A program made the translations under genes and the position numbers. This document shows positions 1,069-44,153 of a DNA stretch of 60,070 nt, piece after piece. The stretch lies in assembly GCA_016188605.1 (NCBI GenBank), contig JACPHP010000016.1:1-60070 (forward strand), read 5' to 3'. The first letter of the stretch is position 1. Every line of letters starts with the position of its first letter. The notes beneath the pieces were generated by a model. It worked only from the letters and a program-made list of their open reading frames with translations, did no database searches and had not been told where the DNA came from. Source of the DNA: Candidatus Spechtbacteria bacterium (GTDB taxonomy: Bacteria > Patescibacteriota > Minisyncoccia > Spechtbacterales > JACPHP01).

Positions 1069-2901
1069 ATGTGCGGAATCGTCGGCTACATAGGCAAAAA
1101 CAATGATCCTCGTTTGGGGCTCGAGGCCCTGAAGCGTTTGGAGTACCGCGGATACGATTCCGCCGGTATGGCTGTTTATGACGCTAAAAAAAAGCGTATA
1201 GTTTCGTTGCGCGCGGTTGGCCGTATCAGCGAGCTTGAAAAGAAATTTTACGAACATCCTTTTGAAGGCATGCCGTTTATTTTTCATACGCGCTGGGCAA
1301 CGCACGGTGAGCCATCAGTGAAAAACGCTCACCCTCATTTTGATTGCACGAAAACAATTTCAGTCGCTCATAACGGTATTATTGAAAATTATCAAACCCT
1401 TAAAGAGCATTTGCAAAAAGAAGGACATGTTTTTCATTCAGACACCGACACCGAGGTGCTTGCGCATCTAATTGAATCTCTGTATAAAAATAGTTTGGAA
1501 AAGGCGGTGCACAAGGCGCTAGGTATGGTGCGTGGAACTTACGGCCTTGCTGTTTTAAGCTCGCGCGAGCCGGATAAAATAATTGCGGCGCGCCTTTCAA
1601 GCCCCCTGCTTATTGGCGTTGGCAAGGGAGAGCATATCATTGCCTCGGACGCTTCTGCGGTTCTTGCGCATACCAAAGATGTGGTTTATATGCAGGACGG
1701 CGATATTGCAGTAATTACTCCTGATTCATTCAGTATCACAACGAAAAATTACGAAGCCCGCAATCCTGCGGTAGAGCAACTGGAGTGGAATCTTGAAGCG
1801 GCGCAAAAAGGCGGGTATCCGCATTTCATGCTCAAGGAAATTTTTGAGCAGCCGGATGCGATAGAGAATTCTTTGCGAGGGCGCATTCTCGCGCAAGACG
1901 GAAAAGCAAAACTAGGCGGCCTTGAAGTTGTAAAAGAAAAACTTCGAGATATTGAAAAAGTGCATATCATTGCCTGCGGGACTGCGTCGTACGCCGCTTC
2001 GGTGGGCGAATATATGCTAGAGGAATACGCCGGCATTCCCACGGAAGTTGATTTTGCTTCAGAGTTTCGTTACCGCAAACCTTTGCTTAATTCGCGTACC
2101 GCGGTGTTAGCGGTCTCTCAATCTGGCGAAACTGCTGACACGCTCGCGGCGCTGCGCGAGGCAAGAGAAAAAGGCGCGATGACGCTCGGTATCGTTAATG
2201 TCGTCGGCTCCACAATTGCCCGCGAGACAGACGCTGGCGTTTACAATCACGCCGGTCCGGAAATTGGAGTTGCGTCCACAAAAGCCTTTACATCGCAACT
2301 TGCAGTGCTAGCGCTTTTGACTTTGTTTTTGGGACGCCAGCGCGGCATGTCGGTCGTGATAGGAAAGCGCATCGCAAACGAACTCGCGCTTATTCCCGGA
2401 CACATGAGGGAAATTTTAAAGCAGGACGCGGCGATTAAAAAAATAGCGGCAAAATACCGCAACGCGCAAAACGCGCTTTACATTGGCAGAAAATATAATT
2501 TTCCAATTGCCCTTGAGGGAGCTTTGAAATTAAAAGAGATTTCATATATTCACGCAGAGGGATACGCATCGGGCGAAATGAAGCATGGCCCAATCGCGCT
2601 TATAGACGACAAATTCCCGACCATCGCGATCGCGCCGGAAGATTCGGTGTATGAAAAAATGCTTTCAAATATACAGGAGATAAAAGCGCGCAAAGGAAAA
2701 ATCATCGCGGTGACAACAATGGGCAACACAAAAATTAGCGCGCTTGCCGATGACGTTATTTATATTCCCAAAACCTTGGAGATGCTCACGCCTCTGCTAA
2801 GTGTCTTGCCGCTTCAGCTTTTGGCGTATCATATTGGCGTACTTAACGGCCGCGACGTAGACAAGCCAAGGAACTTGGCGAAGAGTGTGACCGTGGAATA
2901 G
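1069..2901 (+). CDS. glmS: glutamine--fructose-6-phosphate aminotransferase
   Basis: N-terminal MCGIVGY (Cys2 Ntn amidotransferase) plus two SIS domains and C-terminal KSVTVE. 610 aa. Confidence 0.97.
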   Translation: MCGIVGYIGKNNDPRLGLEALKRLEYRGYDSAGMAVYDAKKKRIVSLRAVGRISELEKKFYEHPFEGMPFIFHTRWATHGEPSVKNAHPHFDCTKTISVAHNGIIENYQTLKEHLQKEGHVFHSDTDTEVLAHLIESLYKNSLEKAVHKALGMVRGTYGLAVLSSREPDKIIAARLSSPLLIGVGKGEHIIASDASAVLAHTKDVVYMQDGDIAVITPDSFSITTKNYEARNPAVEQLEWNLEAAQKGGYPHFMLKEIFEQPDAIENSLRGRILAQDGKAKLGGLEVVKEKLRDIEKVHIIACGTASYAASVGEYMLEEYAGIPTEVDFASEFRYRKPLLNSRTAVLAVSQSGETADTLAALREAREKGAMTLGIVNVVGSTIARETDAGVYNHAGPEIGVASTKAFTSQLAVLALLTLFLGRQRGMSVVIGKRIANELALIPGHMREILKQDAAIKKIAAKYRNAQNALYIGRKYNFPIALEGALKLKEISYIHAEGYASGEMKHGPIALIDDKFPTIAIAPEDSVYEKMLSNIQEIKARKGKIIAVTTMGNTKISALADDVIYIPKTLEMLTPLLSVLPLQLLAYHIGVLNGRDVDKPRNLAKSVTVE

Positions 2902-2956
2902 TTGACATTTTAATGCTTTTACTGTAGAAATTTTATAGATTAGAAAGGAGAGCGCG

Positions 2957-3277
2957 ATGAGCGTTAACAAGCTATCTGGAGCAGAGAAGGAAGTCATCCG
3001 CCATGTGGTGGGGGAAAGACGAGAAATGATAGAAGGTATTGTCGGGCTTCTTAGCGCTGTTGTTGGCGAGGGAGAGGCCTTGAGCAGTACTATAGCCGTT
3101 GCCCTGATGGGCGAAGTAAATCGTATAGAGGTGGCGGGCGGAGATTCGTACGGTCTTTTTTCGCTAGAAGAAGTTAGAGCGCTAGCCCGGCGCATTGATG
3201 TTAGAGGAGACGTTGATATGCAGAATGAATTGAAGGCTGTATGCGCGCCACTCTTTCAAGTTCAAGTAAGATGGTAA
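2957..3277 (+). CDS. hypothetical protein (106 aa)
   Basis: ATG preceded by gaaaGGAGAg SD and followed by a hairpin terminator. No recognisable family. Confidence 0.55.
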   Translation: MSVNKLSGAEKEVIRHVVGERREMIEGIVGLLSAVVGEGEALSSTIAVALMGEVNRIEVAGGDSYGLFSLEEVRALARRIDVRGDVDMQNELKAVCAPLFQVQVRW

Positions 3278-4145: not shown

Positions 4146-4889
4146 CACGCGGACGTAGCCGACTTTATGAATTTGAGTATCAAATTGTTCAACTAGATTA
4201 GACACCGTCATGATCCCAGAGCGCTCTTGAAGAATATCTCCAATAACTCCCAGCGCTTCTAATATCGTTCGGTCTCTTTGCCCGCGCGCAATAACTAGCG
4301 TGCCGCGATTTTTGGTTTGCGGGGTTGCTTCGGGCACGTCTTTTGTTACGATTGATCCGGCGGCAATATATGCGTATTTACCAACATGCAGAGGAGCGAC
4401 AAGCATACTGCCGGATCCTACAAACACCGACTTATCCAAAACGGTTTTGTTTTTATGCACGCCATCGTAGTTGCAAAAAACCGCTCCTGCCCCGATATTA
4501 CACTCCGCTCCAATGCGCGCGTCGCCAATATAGCAAAAATGTTTTGCCTTTACGCGCATTCCAAGGAAAGAGCGTTTTATTTGGGCGTTGTCCTCAATTT
4601 TGCATTGCGGATTTATCACGGAGGATTCTATCCTGCAGAATGTGCCAATCACGCAGTTATCTGCTATGCGAGAATCAGCGATATAGTTATTGGGACCAAT
4701 TACACATTCGCGGCCAATGGTTGTCCCGCCTTCAATAACTACGCCCGGATAAATAATCGTGCCACTCCCTACCGACACTTTGTCTTCAATGTAGATATGG
4801 TCGGGGTCAATTATTATAACACCCGCTTGTATCAGTGTAATTATTTTTGTTTGTCGTTTGACCGAGTCTGCGTATGTTGGAATTTTCAA
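4107..4889 (-). CDS. left-handed beta-helix acetyltransferase resembling the GlmU C-terminal (GlcN-1-P acetyltransferase) domain only
   Basis: Hexapeptide repeats and CYIGDARIGAECNIGAGAVFCNYDGVHKNKTVLDKSVFVGSGSMLVAP, as in GlmU. No uridyltransferase domain. TTG start with AGGAGG SD. About 60 extra C-terminal residues. Confidence 0.85.
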   Translation of the reverse strand: MKIPTYADSVKRQTKIITLIQAGVIIIDPDHIYIEDKVSVGSGTIIYPGVVIEGGTTIGRECVIGPNNYIADSRIADNCVIGTFCRIESSVINPQCKIEDNAQIKRSFLGMRVKAKHFCYIGDARIGAECNIGAGAVFCNYDGVHKNKTVLDKSVFVGSGSMLVAPLHVGKYAYIAAGSIVTKDVPEATPQTKNRGTLVIARGQRDRTILEALGVIGDILQERSGIMTVSNLVEQFDTQIHKVGYVRVDKDGWHIEKPGT

Positions 4890-29688: not shown

Positions 29689-31092
29689 ATGAATGCTATG
29701 CATTTTTTAAATCACCAATTATTCTCTCGCATAATTTTGTTTGCCTGTATCGGCTTACTTGTTGTACTCGCGTATATTTCTTTTTTTGGAGAATTGGGCG
29801 CTTACACGCTAAAGACTGGAAGCGCGGAGATTCAGGGTGATGTTGTAGATTTTCCGATAACTAAATCGGGAAGCACGCGCGTTACTTTGAATCTTTCGAG
29901 CGGTGATAAGGTATTGATATTTTTACCGCTGGCCACAATGGTGCATTTCGGCGACCGCATTGTCGTTAAGGGGAAGATTCAGAATGCTGACAGCGTGCAG
30001 CCGTCTGATTATGCAAGTTATTTGCGCGGGAAAAACATTAACGCGGTGATGTATGGCGCGTCGCTTGTAAACATAACAAAAGGGAGTTCGCAAAATCTTT
30101 TTATTATTCTCGCGCAACTGCGCGAGTACGCGCAAAACACTATAATGTATTTTCTTCACGGGTCTGTGGGCGAAGTTGTTTCTGCGATGGCAATAGGAAC
30201 AAATATGTCGTCTGCAATCAACCAATTATTCGCGCGCGCTGGCATTCTTCATATAGTCGCCATTTCTGGAATGAATATTGTTATGATAATGGAAGCGTTG
30301 CTTGTATTCTTTTTGCTTTGCGGCATGCGCAGGCAAACCGGGATCATTGCTTCCCTCGCAGTTATTTTTGCCTTTATATTTTTAGCAGGTTTTAGTTCTT
30401 CCGTAGTGCGCGCGGGAGTAATGGGAAGTATGCTGTACGTCGCTCAGCTTTTTGGCAGGCCCGTTTCATCTTTGCGTTTGTTGCTTTACGCGGCAGTTAC
30501 AATGCTGGTATGGAATCCGTTTTTACTTGCGGGGGACGTCGGTTTCCAGCTTTCGTTTGCCGCAATGGCAGGAATCATTATTCTGGCGCCTTTTGTTAAC
30601 GATGAACTGCGGCGGCTCTTTGAGAGGAGGGTGAGAGACATTGATTCGTATACCAAAAAACCAAATTGGCTTGCATATCTATGGCAGGGCGCGCGAGGCA
30701 TTATTGCGATGTCGCTTGCCGCAACACTTTTTACAATGCCTATTAGTATTTATCATTTCGGTCTTTTTTCTGTGATAGGCCTCGCGCTTAACATTATCGC
30801 CGTTCCTTTATTGCCGATAATTTTAATTCTCGTATTTTTTATGATTATTCTAGGTTCAGTTCACGCGTTTTTGGGGATGATTGTTTCGTGGCCGGTTTGG
30901 CTCATAGTATCTTTATTGTACGGCGTTGCATCGTTTGCAGGATCGTTGCCGCTTGCGACCATCTCACTGCCAGCAAAATCTTTATTCTTTTTTGTTGTAG
31001 GATACTTTTTTGTAGGTTTTGTAATTTTTGTCGCATCGCGCAAAGGATATCATCCACTGCGCGCGTCATCAACATATTTTTATTTTGATTAA
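29689..31092 (+). CDS. comEC: ComEC/Rec2 competence membrane-channel domain protein
   Basis: Multi-TM protein with AGILHIVAISGMNI and GFQLSF motifs. No beta-lactamase domain in this ORF. Confidence 0.85.
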   Translation: MNAMHFLNHQLFSRIILFACIGLLVVLAYISFFGELGAYTLKTGSAEIQGDVVDFPITKSGSTRVTLNLSSGDKVLIFLPLATMVHFGDRIVVKGKIQNADSVQPSDYASYLRGKNINAVMYGASLVNITKGSSQNLFIILAQLREYAQNTIMYFLHGSVGEVVSAMAIGTNMSSAINQLFARAGILHIVAISGMNIVMIMEALLVFFLLCGMRRQTGIIASLAVIFAFIFLAGFSSSVVRAGVMGSMLYVAQLFGRPVSSLRLLLYAAVTMLVWNPFLLAGDVGFQLSFAAMAGIIILAPFVNDELRRLFERRVRDIDSYTKKPNWLAYLWQGARGIIAMSLAATLFTMPISIYHFGLFSVIGLALNIIAVPLLPIILILVFFMIILGSVHAFLGMIVSWPVWLIVSLLYGVASFAGSLPLATISLPAKSLFFFVVGYFFVGFVIFVASRKGYHPLRASSTYFYFD

Positions 31093-31136: not shown

Positions 31137-31982
31137 ATGCTTAATGCGATTTTTAATTATCGGTCAGCAATGGGGGTCTGCGTTGGGGTGGCGGCGTTAT
31201 TTACTATCCTGCTATACCAAGAAGCACAGTCGCGTTCGCTATCTATATCTTTTTTGGACATTGGGCAGGGCGATTCGGCGCTGATTGTTACTCCCTCGGG
31301 CCGTACTATGCTTGTTGACACTGGACCAGACGGAGCATCGGTCAGTGAGGGCATCGCGCGGCATATGCCATTTTACGCGCGTACCATTGATCTCATTGTC
31401 CTTACGCACCCGGATAAAGATCATATCGGTGGAACACTAGCGGTGTTGAAAGAATATGATGTGCGCGGAATAATCATGCCGTACGCGGGAAAAGACATAC
31501 CTGTTTTTCAAGAGATACTTAATACTGCTAAAGCGCGCAATATTCCAATTCTTTTTGCGCGTTGGCACGAGCGTATAAATCTTGATAGTGAAGTTTCGTT
31601 GCGCGTGTTGTGGCCGCCGGAGGGAGCGGAAAATATTTTTAGCGCATCCAACGATATGTCGCTCGTGATGAAACTGACTTATAAAGACGATTCATTTATG
31701 TTAACTGGGGATATGGAAGCTCGTGGTGAGCACGTTCTCTCTGTATTTGGAGTAGATCTTGCAAGTGATGTGTTGAAAGTTGGGCATCACGGCAGTAGCG
31801 GTTCGACAAGCGAGGACTTTTTGCAAAAAGTTTCACCTAAAATTGCGGTAATTTCAGCGGGAGTTAATAACAGATATGGACATCCGACCGCCGAGGTGCT
31901 TCGGCGGTTATCCAGCATAAAGACTTTACGAACTGACAAAAATGGTGATATAACACTTGTAAGTCAAGGTAATAGCTTTTAA
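31137..31982 (+). CDS. ComEC-type metallo-beta-lactamase domain protein (separate ORF)
   Basis: FLDIGQGDSALI..LVDTG, THPDKDHIGG and VGHHGS motifs, with an N-terminal TM helix. Confidence 0.88.
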   Translation: MLNAIFNYRSAMGVCVGVAALFTILLYQEAQSRSLSISFLDIGQGDSALIVTPSGRTMLVDTGPDGASVSEGIARHMPFYARTIDLIVLTHPDKDHIGGTLAVLKEYDVRGIIMPYAGKDIPVFQEILNTAKARNIPILFARWHERINLDSEVSLRVLWPPEGAENIFSASNDMSLVMKLTYKDDSFMLTGDMEARGEHVLSVFGVDLASDVLKVGHHGSSGSTSEDFLQKVSPKIAVISAGVNNRYGHPTAEVLRRLSSIKTLRTDKNGDITLVSQGNSF

Positions 31983-31987
31983 AATTT

Positions 31988-32110
31988 AAGGACTTTCGCG
32001 TTCGGCGCATTTCGTTGTTGCGGCCTCCGTTCCTCGACAACGTATTTCTATATACGTTTTACTCCGGTACTCGTCCGCGCCTAGAAATGCACTCAAACGC
32101 AAAAATCCTT
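31988..32110 (-). ncRNA. structured element B, homologous to the tuf-leader element A at 42807-42927
   Basis: The reverse complement aligns with element A, including the identical CTAGGCGCGGACGAG (32070-32084). The outer helix is continuous, with three G.U pairs, only as a minus-strand RNA. Confidence 0.5.
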
Positions 32111-32121
32111 TACTTCTAAAT

Positions 32122-32718
32122 ATGGAACAAAAACATCCAGCCGAAGAAACAACAGTATTATTGGTTAAGCCAGATGGAGTAAAGCGTGGCTTGGTCGGTG
32201 AGGTTGTAAAGCGTATTGAAATGCGAGGGTTAAAAATTATTGCGCTTAAAATGATTGCCGTGTCTCGTGAGCACGCGCGGAATCATTATCCTAACACTGA
32301 CGAATGGATGCGTGGAATGGGAGAAAAAACTCTTTCCAATTACAATCAATATGGGAAGGATTCAATTCAAGAAATAGGCACAGCAGATCCATTGGAAATA
32401 GGCAAAATGGTGGCAGAATGGAATGTGGATTTTCTCACGTCAGGCCCTGTTGTCGCAATGTTAATAAAAGGAATACATGCTGTTGATATGGTGCGTAAAA
32501 TTGTAGGCAAAACTATTCCATCGCAAGCGGAAATGGGAACGATTCGCGGCGATTATTCCGTGGATTCGCCAACCATGGCAAACTTTGCAAAACGCGCAAT
32601 TCATAACGTGGTGCACGCGTCAGGCGACCCATCTGAAGCGGCGCACGAACTTGAGCATTGGTTTACCGCAGAAGAAATTCACGACTATAAGAGAGCAGAG
32701 GAAGATATTATGTTTTAA
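32122..32718 (+). CDS. ndk: nucleoside diphosphate kinase (long form with insertion)
   Basis: TVLLVKPDGVKRGLVGEV..R.E..GLKI and NVVHASGD (catalytic His). Confidence 0.92.
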   Translation: MEQKHPAEETTVLLVKPDGVKRGLVGEVVKRIEMRGLKIIALKMIAVSREHARNHYPNTDEWMRGMGEKTLSNYNQYGKDSIQEIGTADPLEIGKMVAEWNVDFLTSGPVVAMLIKGIHAVDMVRKIVGKTIPSQAEMGTIRGDYSVDSPTMANFAKRAIHNVVHASGDPSEAAHELEHWFTAEEIHDYKRAEEDIMF

Positions 32719-40019: not shown

Positions 40020-42128
40020 ATGCCTCGTCTCTATACTCTTGAAAAAACACGAAATATCGGCATTATCGCACACATTGACGCGGGTAAAACTACAGTTACC
40101 GAGCGTATTTTATTTTACACTGGTATTTCCCATAAAATAGGCGAGGTGCACGAGGGCGCCGCGATTATGGACTGGATGGAGCAGGAGCGAGAGCGCGGCA
40201 TTACTATTACTTCCGCGGCCACGACTTGTTTTTGGATTCCGACAGAGTTTCCTCGCGACGATAAAAGCCATGAAAATCGTTTTAATATTATAGATACTCC
40301 AGGGCACGTGGATTTTACCGTAGAAGTAGAGCGCTCTATGCGCGTGCTGGACGGCGGCGTGGTGGTGTTTGACGGGGTTGCTGGCGTTGAGCCACAATCA
40401 GAAACAGTATGGCGACAGGCGGACAAATACCGCGTGCCACGCATTTGTTTTATAAATAAACTTGACCGCATGGGCGCTAGTTTTGATCGCAGCCTTCAGT
40501 CTATCAAAAATCGTCTCACCACAAACGCGGTGGCAATCCAAATTCCAGTAGGTGAAGAAAGCAATTTTAATGGCGTTATTGACTTACTGACGCAAAAACA
40601 CGTCCGTTTTGAGGGCGAGCACGGCGAGCGCATAATTCATGAAGAAATCCCAGCGAACTTAAAAGAAAAAGCAGATGCGATGCGCGCCGTGATGATGGAA
40701 AGGATTGTAGAACAAGACGACAGTTTGATGGAGCGATATCTAAACGGAGGTGAAATCAGCGTGGACGAGCTTCGCGCGGTGTTGCGCAAAGCAACAATTG
40801 CAAATGATCTAGTGCCTGTTTTGTGCGGAAGCGCGCTGAAAAATCAGGGCGTACAGCTCATGCTCGATGGTGTAGTTTACTATTTACCAAATCCGACAGA
40901 AACCCACGAGATTAAAGGGGAAGACCCTAAGACTGGAGAAGAAGTTCGCCGGAATATAGCGGATACCGATCCGTTTACTTCTCTTGCTTTCAAAATCGCA
41001 AACGACCCCTTTGTGGGCCAGTTGGTGTACTTTCGTGTTTACGCCGGAGTGCTTATGAAGGGTTCGTATGTGTTGAACGCCAGCACCGGCAATAAGGAGC
41101 GCATTGGTCGCATCGTGCGTATGCATGCAAATCAGCGAGAAGAGGTGGACGAGGTATATGCGGGGGATATCGCGGCGGCAGTTGGACTGAAGGGTACAAC
41201 TACCGGTAACACGCTTTGTGATCCCGACCATCCGATTCTTCTTGAAAATATTGTATTCCCAGAGCCAGTTATTTCCGTGCGCATTGAACCGAAGACTCGC
41301 GCCGACCAAGAGAAGATGGGTATCGCGCTTCATCGCCTCACGGAGGAAGACCCGACCTTCCGAGTCAGAACCGACGAAGAAACTGCCGAGGTTATTATCT
41401 CCGGCATGGGCGAGCTTCACCTTGAGATTATCGTTGATCGCATGATGCGCGAGTTTGGCGTGCAGGCAAATATCGGCAGGCCGCAAGTTGCGTATCGCGA
41501 AACTATTAAAAATACAGCAGAGGCAGAAGGAAAATATATTCGCCAAACCGGCGGTCGCGGACAATACGGCCATGTGTGGCTTCGCGTGGAGCCGATGGAG
41601 CAGGGAGCAGGCTACGAATTTATTAATGCTATTAAGGGAGGTATTATTCCCCAAGAATATATTCCTGCGGTTGGAAAGGGCGTGAAGGAAGCGATGGATC
41701 GCGGCGTGCTGGCAGGGTTTCCCATGGTTGACGTTAAGGTTACGCTTTATGACGGATCTTACCATGACGTTGACTCTTCTGAAGCGGCCTTTAAGATTGC
41801 GGGTTCTATCGCATTTCAAGAGGCAACGCGCAGCGCAAAGATTGTTCTCCTTGAGCCGATTATGAAAGTTGAAACTATTACGCCGGACGATCACCTCGGG
41901 GATGTTACGGGCGATTTGAGTTCTAAGCGCGCGCAAATTGAAGAAATGGGCGAGCGAGGAATCTTGAAGACCGTACACGCTCTCGTGCCACTTGCGGAAA
42001 TGTTTGGCTACGCAACACAATTGAGGTCAATGACACAAGGTCGAGGAAGCTACAGCATGGAGTTTAGCCACTACGCGGAGGTGCCGAATAATATCGCGAT
42101 GGGGATTGTGGAAGGGAGGAAGAAGTAA
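40020..42128 (+). CDS. fusA: elongation factor G
   Basis: [15 protein letters not shown] and DTPGHVDF, with all five EF-G domains. 702 aa. Confidence 0.98.
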
Positions 42129-42212: not shown

Positions 42213-42548
42213 ATGTGGGAATCACTCAAAAAGTTTATACATAGCAATCATGATCGTATAGTCGTTGTTGAGGATAACGAGCCGCGGTACGTGATAATGC
42301 CAATTGCAGAATACACGGCTTTGATAGAGAGGGGGCGGCAGGCGGATTCGACCCCTTCAATAAACTCCCCTCAATCTAATTCGGGGCAGGCACCGCAGGC
42401 AGACTCAACCGAGGCGCTGCAAAAGGTGAACAATGCGCTTCAAGAGGCACACGAGTCGGAGTCACTGATATCTCCTCCGATTGTGCCTCAAAAAGAGCCA
42501 GAGGACAGGCGTAGATCGGGGATTAGTATAGAAGACCTGCCTATTTAA
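42213..42548 (+). CDS. hypothetical protein inserted between fusA and tuf; N-terminus faintly Phd/YefM-antitoxin-like
   Basis: RIVVVEDNEPRYVIMPIAEYTALIE resembles the Phd/YefM beta-strand/helix pattern (weak, by eye). The C-terminal half is low-complexity and encoded by the repeat at 42344-42392. Confidence 0.5.
   Translation: MWESLKKFIHSNHDRIVVVEDNEPRYVIMPIAEYTALIERGRQADSTPSINSPQSNSGQAPQADSTEALQKVNNALQEAHESESLISPPIVPQKEPEDRRRSGISIEDLPI
42344..42392. repeat. hairpin-containing element embedded in frame in a CDS, copy 2
   Basis: ggattcgaccccttcaataaactCCCCtcaatctaattcGGGGcaggca. Same reading frame as copy 1 (DSTPSINSPQ.NSGQA). Confidence 0.85.
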
Positions 42549-42712
42549 TGTCAAAGTCCAAATTACAAATGACAAAAGAATGTCAAAATCTAAAAATTCA
42601 AAATTGTTAACTTTGACTAAATGCCCTAATTTTCTCCGCCTGAGACGCCTGCCCGCCTCTGGCGGGGATCAGCCTTTGGCTGAGACATTTGGACTTTGAA
42701 ATTTGAGCTTTA
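42549..42712. repeat. caaagtccaaat-word hairpin enclosing the CCGCC module, copy 3
   Basis: The arms tgtcaaagtccaaattacaaatgac.. and ..gacatttggactttgaaatttgagc flank 42626-42674, which is identical to 37317-37365. Confidence 0.8.
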
Positions 42713-42723
42713 AATTGCATCTA

Positions 42724-42751
42724 TTGACGTAATCATAAATATAAGTAAAAT
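42724..42751 (+). promoter_or_regulatory. promoter TTGACG-N16-TAAAAT for tuf (about 200-nt leader)
   Basis: -35 at 42724-42729 and -10 at 42746-42751. Confidence 0.5.
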
Positions 42752-42806
42752 ACATCTTGTGTCCTTAACTTACCTTTTTGCTCAGTAGACACTGACGCGA
42801 AAAGCT

Positions 42807-42927
42807 AGGGCTTACGCGTTTGGATGAGATGCTAGGCGCGGACGAGCAGCCGACCGAGACGTACTAAAGTACGTTGAGGAAGGAAGCGCAGTCCGCAACA
42901 ACGCAGATCGCCAAACGCGTAAGCCCT
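42807..42927 (+). ncRNA. structured element A in the tuf leader
   Basis: 17-bp closing helix agggcttacgcgtttgg/ccaaacgcgtaagccct, inner gcggac/gtccgc, and hairpin ACGTAC-taaa-GTACGT. Its homologue is at 31988-32110. Confidence 0.55.
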
Positions 42928-42959
42928 ATAAGCAATAAACTAACTAATAAATAAAATAT

Positions 42960-44153
42960 ATGGCAGAAAAATATCAGCGCACAAAACCTCATATAAACGT
43001 AGGCACAATCGGTCACGTTGACCACGGCAAGACTACACTAACAGCCGCGATTTTGAAGTACGCGCAGCTTAAAGGATGGACAGCATCCAAGAAAGGAATT
43101 AATGAAATTGACTCCGCGCCGGAGGAGCGCGCTCGTGGGATTACGATTGCATTGGCTCACGTTGAGTACGAGACATCTAATCGTCATTACGCGCACATTG
43201 ACGCTCCAGGACACGCGGATTACATTAAGAATATGATTACCGGCGCCGCGCAGATGGACGGCGCAATTTTGGTGGTATCAGCAGCAGACGGTCCAATGCC
43301 CCAGACTCGTGAGCACATACTTTTAGCTCGACAGGTAGGCGTGCCAAATATCATCGTATTCTTAAACAAAGTAGACCAGGTAGATGATCCAGAGCTTATA
43401 GAGCTTGTAGAAACAGAAATTCGTGAGCTTTTGAATAAATACGAATATGATGGCGAAAAAACTCCTATCATCAAGGGTTCAGCGCTCAATGCTTTGAGCG
43501 CGGCATCCGCAGATGACGCGGCGGCGTTGCCAATCGGCGAATTGCTCACTACAATGGACGAATACTTCCCACTGCCTGTACGCGAAACGGAAAAGCCGTT
43601 TCTAATGCCAGTTGAAGACATTTTTTCCATTGAAGGCCGCGGTACTGTTGTTACTGGTAAAATTGAGCGCGGTAAAATCAACATCAATCAGGAAGTTGAA
43701 ATCGTCGGCATTCGCCCAACGTCAAAGACAGTTGTCACTGGTATTGAAATGTTCAACAAACAACTCGATGAGGGTCTAGCTGGCGATAATGTTGGTTTGC
43801 TTTTGCGCGGTTTGAAGAAAGAAGACGTAGAACGCGGGCAGGTTATTGCCGCAACCGGCACAATCACACCGCATACGGAATTCACAGCACAAGTATATAT
43901 TCTCTCAAAAGAAGAAGGTGGCCGCCACACTCCGTTTTTCACTGGATACAAGCCGCAATTTTATTTCCGCACAACTGATGTTACCGGCGATGTAACCTTA
44001 CCTGAAGGCACCGAAATGGTTATGCCTGGCGATACCGTGTCGTTGAATGTTAAATTGGTTTCTCCTATAGGCATGGAGGAACAACAGCGATTTGCTATTC
44101 GTGAGGGAGGCCGCACAGTCGGCGCGGGTGCCGTAACAAAGATTTCCGCCTAA
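42960..44153 (+). CDS. tuf: elongation factor Tu
   Basis: [27 protein letters not shown] and NKVD. 397 aa. Confidence 0.99.

Follow-up and report, generated by a model that had tools for sequence, protein, structure and literature searches.

Two hairpin elements on a Candidatus Spechtbacteria contig are copies of a dispersed repeat family found in uncultured bacteria

Several families of hairpin-forming repeats have been described in bacterial genomes. REPs show G-T pairing in their stems, occur within genes and at sites downstream of genes, keep their hairpins through compensatory evolution and are cleaved in single-stranded form by the Y1 transposase RAYT; RPEs, which have a CGTC tag, are found only in Rickettsia and its relatives (PMC3733652). 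PMC3116915 describes REPINs, and PMC2759123 intragenic copies of ERIC/RU-1 elements. Here we analyzed a stretch of 60,070 nucleotides from a Candidatus Spechtbacteria bacterium (contig JACPHP010000016.1), hereafter the window, in which two copies, A and B, of a 123-nt imperfect hairpin are found. Copy A precedes tuf, and copy B lies between a comEC-type gene and ndk.

We propose that A and B are diverged copies of a new family of non-coding, non-autonomous hairpin repeats, of REP/REPIN-, RPE- or ERIC-like type, a reading to which we give a probability of about 0.55. The family is dispersed and multi-copy, and in some genomes it has been amplified recently. Searches of the literature by sequence string and by topic found no description of the element.

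Like REPs and REPINs, the element is non-coding, hairpin-forming and multi-copy, is mostly intergenic and sometimes intragenic, and it shares with REPs a strand-specific hairpin with G-T wobble and compensatory changes (PMC3733652). The termini of its rods also often begin with YTAG. However, it is a single rod of 100-200 nt and not a palindrome of 20-40 nt or a doublet of small palindromes, its tag-like CUAGG is placed inside an internal loop under an outer stem and reads CTAG, not GTAG, and its copy numbers look low, from 2 to about 10 per assembly. In addition, a phmmer search of low sensitivity, covering 2-10 kb per locus, found no RAYT gene near any copy. The core of the element, CTAGGCGCGGACGAG, resembles the start of the E. 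coli REP, GTAGGCCGGATAAG, a string that does occur in papers.

A parallel can also be drawn with RPEs, which are likewise palindromic repeats of ~100-150 bp. In-frame gene insertions that are absent from homologues occur here too, in a Wzy_C gene of another genome (locus L108) and not in the window. As RPEs are described, the element differs from them in spanning several phyla and in having a different, asymmetric conserved core. ERIC/RU-1 (127 bp) and the Correia elements of Neisseria are likewise imperfect palindromes of ~100-150 bp that lie in transcribed spacers in either orientation and resemble miniature inverted-repeat transposable elements (MITEs); occasional intragenic ERIC/RU-1 copies have open frames (PMC2759123). 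The transcripts of both form long hairpins. Each of these repeats is limited to a single bacterial family or genus, whereas the element is found in uncultured lineages of several phyla. In one assembly (JANQJO01), the termini of the element, TATAGCGG, resemble the Correia terminus. The departures from the known repeats keep alive the idea of a genuine RNA function for the family, which we nevertheless hold to be unlikely.

Copies A and B in the window

The two copies, their conserved cores and the site upstream of A are the following, R1 being a covariance model built from 12 copies with the structure set by hand:

42806-42928, plus strand: copy A of the hairpin repeat, a 123-nt rod, R1 score 85 bits
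42832-42846, plus strand: conserved 5' core of A, UAGGC, then GCGGAC (5' strand of helix P3), then GAG
42895-42903, plus strand: conserved 3' core of A, GCAACAACG, in which GC is the end of P3 and AACAAC the 3' side of the loop
31988-32110, minus strand: copy B of the hairpin repeat, a 123-nt rod, R1 score 88 bits
32070-32084, minus strand: conserved 5' core of B, CTAGGCGCGGACGAG, given as minus-strand sequence
42724-42751, plus strand: promoter-like site TTGACG-16-TAAAAT, a consensus match only, outside the repeat

A first-pass annotation of this DNA had located both elements correctly, and we only refined the paired region of A to 42806-42928. It had also noted strings shared by A and B; indeed, CTAGGCGCGGACGAG and GCAACAACG are identical between A on the plus strand and B on the minus strand, for an overall sequence identity of ~50-60%. 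The termini of A are TAGGGC...GCCCTA and its core is CUAGGCGCGGACGAG / GCAACAACG. The UAGGC of its 5' core forms the 5' side of a 5x6 internal loop, and the last G of its 3' core pairs with the C of CUAGG. The rod of B can be extended to 31978-32120. Exact matches to the 15-mer CTAGGCGCGGACGAG occur in the window only at A and B; with up to three mismatches, 7 matches are observed for 1.1 expected. Used with its filters off, R1 detects only A and B in the window.

On the plus strand, A is predicted to fold as an unbranched rod of -71.1 to -72.4 kcal/mol (z -11.9 at -71.1), and its opposite strand folds more weakly (-62.6 to -63.9 kcal/mol). The minus strand of B likewise forms an unbranched rod, of -53.2 to -56.8 kcal/mol (z -7.0 at -53.2), and its plus strand a markedly weaker fold (-35.9 to -36.4 kcal/mol). 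The three G.U pairs that had been claimed for the closing stem of B on the minus strand are present. We thus confirm that A and B are homologous rods with a conserved secondary structure.

The element had not been recognised as a member of a described RNA family, and this held when both copies were checked against Rfam: at gathering thresholds, a scan of the whole window with Rfam 15 returned two tRNAs only and assigned neither A nor B. At E<=10, nothing was found on B and a single sub-threshold Hammerhead_II match on A (RF02276; 18.5 bits and E 0.27, for a gathering cut-off of 37); the stretch CGGACGAG resembles the hammerhead core CUGAUGAG. The upstream GAA of this match lies in a flank that differs among the compared copies. 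The hammerhead was rejected, the element being an unbranched rod without three-way junction, with a match below threshold on A and none on B. SRP RNA, 6S RNA, Y RNA, tmRNA, RNase P fragments, group II intron domain V, the k-turn, the hairpin ribozyme, retron msr/msd, the guide RNAs of TnpB/IscB and the IS110 bridge RNA were also set aside, their defining motifs or context being absent and Rfam lending them no support. In these sequence comparisons, the element matched none of the known classes of self-cleaving ribozyme.

A dispersed family with pairing kept on one strand

From its base to its tip, the element forms a single long, imperfect hairpin of 100-200 nt. A terminal stem of variable sequence is followed by a 3-bp helix, by an asymmetric internal loop that is conserved (UAGGC / AACAAC) and by the helix GCGGAC/GUCCGC; then come purine-rich 2x2 loops and the apical hairpin. 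At the rod termini, (Y)TAG...CTA(R) is often seen. Tandem G.A motifs (AGAU/AGAU) recur among copies, and the apical loops lack conservation.

Copies were collected from pattern scans and from R1, and were counted as members of the family at R1 E<=0.001. For each of them 2-10 kb of flanking DNA was examined; gene calls in high-GC loci are heuristic, and taxon labels are those deposited for the metagenome-assembled genomes (MAGs), some of which are unreliable. The exact two-block pattern places the element in six species genomes, labelled Parcubacteria, Gammaproteobacteria, Dormibacterota (two), Elusimicrobiaceae and 'Bdellovibrionales'. The last of these probably belongs to the candidate phyla radiation (CPR) and bears a wrong label, since MAGs labelled alike encode a CPR-like EF-Tu. 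A metagenome scan gave six further real copies and two chance matches. A relaxed scan (TAGGCGCSRRCGAG...GCAACAAC) returned 99 stretches. Folding and R1 scoring led us to drop ~25-30 that match by chance within coding sequence, a number in line with the information content of the pattern; the rest score with R1. In Clostridia MAGs (L102, L110, L129 and L149), four pattern matches fall in one conserved coding sequence from which the element fold is missing, a recurrent false positive.

Altogether, 85 copies were retained. Their hosts are Patescibacteria (many), Dormibacterota, soil MAGs labelled 'Chloroflexi'/Limnocylindrales, Elusimicrobia, and MAGs carrying the labels Beta-, Gamma- and Deltaproteobacteria, Legionellaceae and Eggerthellaceae. 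The first-pass annotation had suggested building a covariance model; together with the pattern scans, such a model recovered these copies. Single assemblies hold at least nine copies (CAYFUG01, with five inside 3.5 kb of L108), at least six (JAYTVG01, labelled 'Deltaproteobacteria') or four (JBGPOC01 and JANQJO01, the latter labelled 'Pseudomonadales'). A scan with the 5' half only (AGATGCTAGGCGCGGACGAG), aimed at a longer autonomous form, returned ordinary copies only. The plasmid, phage and IMG/VR collections gave no real match, and no sequence similarity to the element was detected in the plasmid and phage collections; the sole IMG/VR match (L010/L015) is a chance coincidence in coding sequence.

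The first copies, obtained from the pattern and metagenome scans, have helices that vary in sequence and retain their pairing. In the 85-copy alignment, standard pairs fill 88.8% of the cells, as compared with 63.3% after column shuffles and 27-40% with slid partners, and double-sided changes are observed at 29 of 30 pairs. The covariation score is 0.60, against 0.18 for shuffled columns and ~0.08-0.11 for slid partners. The compensatory changes proposed from A and B, in which the helices differ yet stay complementary, are therefore real and extend across this alignment.

The pairing has a defined polarity, as had been suggested for B. Among 81 full rods, we counted 327 G.U pairs for 20 A.C 1x1 mismatches, and the strand carrying CUAGG is the more stable, folded one in 78, that strand being the minus strand in the case of B. 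If the palindrome mattered as double-stranded DNA alone, G.U and A.C would be expected in equal numbers; therefore, one defined strand is preserved in single-stranded form. This applies irrespective of whether a copy runs in the sense or antisense direction, or is convergent with or divergent from its neighbours.

Evidence for mobility, insertion into a gene and possible mechanisms

Recent amplification is observed in JBGPOC01, a Dormibacteraceae MAG, where the loci L112, L131 and L120/L168 share a 224-nt unit with an identity of 97-100%, beyond which their flanks are unrelated. The copies of this unit, in JBGPOC01 and in one 'Chloroflexi'-labelled MAG, are located as follows:

L112, 7016-7239: 224-nt unit
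L131, 986-1210: 224-nt unit
L120, 6228-6386, and L168, 1-209: parts of the 224-nt unit, which may be the halves of one copy
L164, ~4150-4370: 224-nt unit

Inverted ends of 23 bp (CTAGTGGCC...; CTAGTGGCCyGrCCCAGAAATAG), flanked by CTAG or TTAG, delimit the unit, which may represent a miniature transposon of composite or nested structure with a recent amplification. Both in JBGPOC01 and in one 'Chloroflexi'-labelled MAG, the rod is off-centre within the unit, which has two extra small hairpins. In JANQJO01, one unit, TATAGCGG...CCGCTATA, is common to four copies.

The element is also gained or lost between syntenic loci. The loci L012 and L005 have in common the gene order polA-fpg-copy-PAP2-cutA; between PAP2 and cutA, which abut in L005, L012 carries a further copy, and this second copy provides the final codons and the stop codon of PAP2.

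Moreover, the element can sit in-frame within an open reading frame (ORF). In L108 (contig CAYFUG010000003.1, from a CPR MAG), an ORF of 570 aa encoding a Wzy_C (O-antigen-ligase) protein (1479-3191, minus strand) contains three in-frame, antisense copies, which add ~40-60 residues each (for example ...GALWCCHLRFVFTVPFSTPQVKPRRRLK...). In a multiple alignment, exactly these three element-encoded segments are missing from seven Wzy_C homologues of 376-428 aa. When the segments are removed in silico, the Pfam Wzy_C match becomes full-length again, going from profile positions 35-148 to 3-148, and its bit score drops from 41.6 to 34.7. A membrane enzyme has thus been lengthened three times, and coding palindromes like the RPEs of Rickettsia occur in the streamlined genomes of Patescibacteria as well. 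In the same locus, a fourth copy overlaps the 3' end of the Wzy_C gene and a fifth is found 1.6 kb off.

In 34 of 84 copies, every frame of the sense strand is interrupted by a stop, and in 80 of 84 one or more frames of the antisense strand are open. This difference between the strands would explain why the ORF-internal copies are antisense, and it accounts for the excess of antisense copies in a crude classification (20 antisense and 10 sense between co-directional genes, 11 convergent, 11 divergent). According to the first-pass annotation, its interpretation would fail if further copies did not maintain the helices and were randomly oriented relative to transcription; the helices are maintained, but the orientation relative to neighbours is mixed.

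Either orientation is tolerated between housekeeping genes, and the neighbour pairs are unrelated to one another (comEC/ndk, uvrC/rapZ, fpg/PAP2, trxB/cobO, dnaB/recR/rplU, waaA, rplV/rpsC). The copy between rplV and rpsC (L009, 3370-3560, metagenome contig CAAGKR010311966.1) lies in the S10/spc cluster on the strand opposite to the genes, and shows that highly expressed operons tolerate the element in antisense orientation. An all-against-all BLASTP comparison of the ORFs of the element loci revealed no neighbour protein family recurring across phyla, and Pfam scans of the neighbours returned housekeeping genes only.

This gene context already contradicts another conceivable explanation, namely that the rods are folded single-stranded DNA recombination sites of the integron attC type, which mark gene cassettes. 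A strand-specific hairpin with a conserved unpaired central region, copies often lying opposite to their flanking genes and the single orientation of several L108 copies would all suit such sites. But the flanking genes are core housekeeping genes and not cassettes, no RYYYAAC/GTTRRRY boxes were seen at the stem base in the termini inspected, some copies lie within an ORF and no integrase recurs nearby, so that we consider attC sites as having almost no chance of being the answer.

More credit can be given to an ordinary cut-and-paste MITE, in which a DDE transposase (for example of the IS5 or IS630 type) would bind the terminal stem as a pair of terminal inverted repeats and the hairpin would be a by-product. 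The element is indeed small, non-coding and multi-copy, with rods of 70-207 nt, complementary ends and up to at least nine copies per assembly; its inverted-repeat termini often begin with TAG or CTAG, TA borders the copies of JANQJO01, the 224-nt unit of JBGPOC01 has its long inverted ends and CTAG/TTAG flanks, and insertions are polymorphic. A double-stranded mechanism nevertheless predicts G.T and A.C in equal numbers, which is not what the counts of 327 and 20 show. Furthermore, the terminal stems of the element vary between genomes and it is its non-palindromic interior, the internal loop and the adjacent helix, that is conserved, the opposite of what classical MITE families show. No related insertion sequence turned up in the 2-10 kb around each copy. 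A MITE of this kind therefore appears quite unlikely to us.

For the hairpin-repeat family that we favor, the mechanism could be as follows. The element would be a selfish insertion spreading via a single-stranded form of the CUAGG strand, which would be read by its structure. The intermediate could be single-stranded DNA handled by a structure-specific enzyme, in the way RAYT/IS200-type Y1 transposases handle REPs, or alternatively an RNA copy of the CUAGG strand. Lineages retaining hairpin and core would multiply, and selection at this level would explain the covariation and the G.U (G.T) wobble even in copies that are antisense to host genes. Selection by the host would then sieve the insertions. 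The bias for G.U over A.C, together with a conserved, non-palindromic core found across phyla, argues for such a single-stranded, structure-read intermediate. The family could thus be a handle on how REP-, RPE- and ERIC-like repeats are mobilised. In practice, R1 and the 85-member alignment can be used to mask these elements in genomes of uncultured bacteria, in which they otherwise inflate ORF calls and break assemblies.

Several observations weigh against this proposal. A phmmer search for the TnpA of IS200/IS608 among the ORFs of the loci and of the window, of low sensitivity, found nothing in the 2-10-kb loci. Examination of the flanks established no target-site duplication; they would suit CTAG/TTAG or TA as a target, and the (Y)TAG...CTA(R) termini hint at TA or CTAG. 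The 85-copy alignment was fitted to R1, which favours pairing, although the pairing margin is large despite this fit and single-sequence folds concur. Part of the apparent conservation of the core was imposed by the scan patterns, and the 12 copies found by R1 alone, which are free of this bias, show more variation there: their best-kept positions are UAGG, CGAG, GAG...UGA around the apical hairpin, ACnnC and an AG that precedes the 3' strand of P3, and P3 itself can be wholly replaced (for example by AAAAUC/GAUUUU). The exact core of 14 nt plus 8 nt is found in Patescibacteria, Dormibacterota, Elusimicrobiota and MAGs labelled Proteobacteria, which is unusual for a purely selfish repeat and fits a functional RNA equally well. 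Finally, most copies in one genome are old (50-75% identical) and yet still perfectly paired, which could mean that each of them is under selection in place.

The latter points would suit a multi-copy family of structured, for example protein-binding or catalytic, noncoding RNAs, whose genes would have been duplicated or carried along, with the CUAGG strand transcribed and each copy selected where it stands. The strong covariation, the restriction of G.U pairs to one strand, the internal-loop nucleotides kept across phyla, the old paralogues still perfectly paired within one genome, the recurrent tandem G.A motifs and the lack of any Rfam match all agree with this view. It accounts poorly, however, for spacers that are filled entirely and leave no room for a promoter of the element's own (B, L051 and L146), for copies located within an ORF or on the opposite strand within a ribosomal-protein operon, for presence or absence differing between syntenic loci and for apical loops without conservation; moreover, the loci revealed neither a promoter or terminator conserved in the flanks nor a conserved partner gene. 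We thus regard an RNA gene family as unlikely.

A more speculative variant, which we find rather doubtful, would combine mobility with RNA function: the asymmetric loop and its helix (UAGGC-GCGGAC-GAG / GCAACAAC) would be the active or protein-binding site of an undescribed class of RNA that drives or guides its own spread. If so, Patescibacteria, Dormibacterota, Elusimicrobiota and Proteobacteria would have in common an RNA-centred mobile element, the RNA being for example a small ribozyme or the scaffold for a widespread protein. A core that is an RNA active site would make it a new RNA class.

The tuf-leader reading and the surroundings of A and B

Copy A had been described in the first-pass annotation as the tuf leader, and copy B had been considered a possible antisense small RNA. 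In its full form, the former idea makes A a cis-regulatory leader, for example a riboswitch or an autoregulatory site for a ribosomal protein or EF-Tu, controlling tuf and the S10 operon. The position of A is suggestive in this respect: the promoter-like TTGACG-16-TAAAAT and the tuf start codon (ATG at 42960) are indeed where they had been reported, and A begins 55 nt past the former and ends 32 nt before the latter. In addition, in the orthologous CPR loci L158 and L161, a sense copy lies just upstream of the gene of another translational GTPase.

We searched with R1 80 loci encoding the closest relatives of this EF-Tu (1.35 Mb), the closest being those of Patescibacteria with 66-76% identity. 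The element was found upstream of tuf in none of the 80, and it is therefore not a conserved feature of tuf. A single new copy was recovered, 6.6 kb from tuf and on the other strand, between trxB-like and cobO-like genes (assigned by reading) and antisense to both. Besides, most copies of the family are antisense, convergent or divergent to unrelated neighbour genes, and some are within an ORF. The leader reading is thus already contradicted by the distribution of the element, and we judge it very improbable, which removes the tempting false lead of a new EF-Tu riboswitch or leader. The pairing of a tuf leader with an antisense small RNA does not survive either in a family that is multi-copy, occurs in all orientations next to unrelated genes and lies in-frame within a gene.

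In L158 (625-721) and L161 (7133-7229), which are from related CPR MAGs, the sense copy is directly upstream of a GTPase gene that we read as typA/bipA from its N-terminal sequence. These two copies are probably one orthologous insertion, the sole other case in which the element adjoins a translational GTPase.

Copy A is located, in the sense direction to tuf, in a 411-nt spacer between fusA (40020-42128, plus strand) with a 111-aa ORF (42213-42548, plus strand) on one side and tuf (42960-44153, plus strand) on the other; rpsJ, rplC and rplD follow, all on the plus strand. Its place before tuf is a chance site of one copy of a dispersed repeat. If the promoter-like site is used, the 5' untranslated region of the tuf-S10 mRNA would open with hairpin A, of about -72 kcal/mol, which could alter mRNA stability or processing or suffer cleavage by RNase III. 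Any such effect of A on tuf would be incidental.

Copy B is antisense to both of its flanking genes, the comEC-type gene, which consists of two ORFs (29689-31092 and 31137-31982, plus strand), and ndk (32122-32718, plus strand). It occupies their whole spacer, at 5 nt from the comEC stop codon and 11 nt from the ndk ATG, and because it fills this spacer the gap between B and the ndk coding sequence leaves no room for a promoter. B would be passive there, and a continuous mRNA, if there is one, would carry its weaker complement (-36 kcal/mol).

Four minor features of these surroundings can be mentioned. The two comEC ORFs, 44 nt apart, correspond to a 467-aa membrane part and a 281-aa metallo-beta-lactamase-like part, and this split could be natural or result from a frameshift or an assembly error. 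The 111-aa ORF at 42213-42548 (plus strand) has a sub-threshold match to the Phd/YefM antitoxins (E 5.5e-4, 20.1 bits for a cut-off of 29.8), and a Phd/YefM-like ORF between fusA and tuf is unusual for the str/S10 region. Between this ORF and the promoter-like site, at 42636-42700 (plus strand), lies a GC-rich hairpin, GCCCGCC-TCT-GGCGGGG, with a CTGAGAC direct repeat on both sides; it could terminate the upstream ORF, and the terminator scan is silent here because a T-run is absent. Finally, a short separate hairpin, CUUUUUGCUCAGU-AGAC-ACUGACGCGAAAAG, is found directly 5' of A at 42781-42805 (plus strand), within the predicted 5' untranslated region of tuf.

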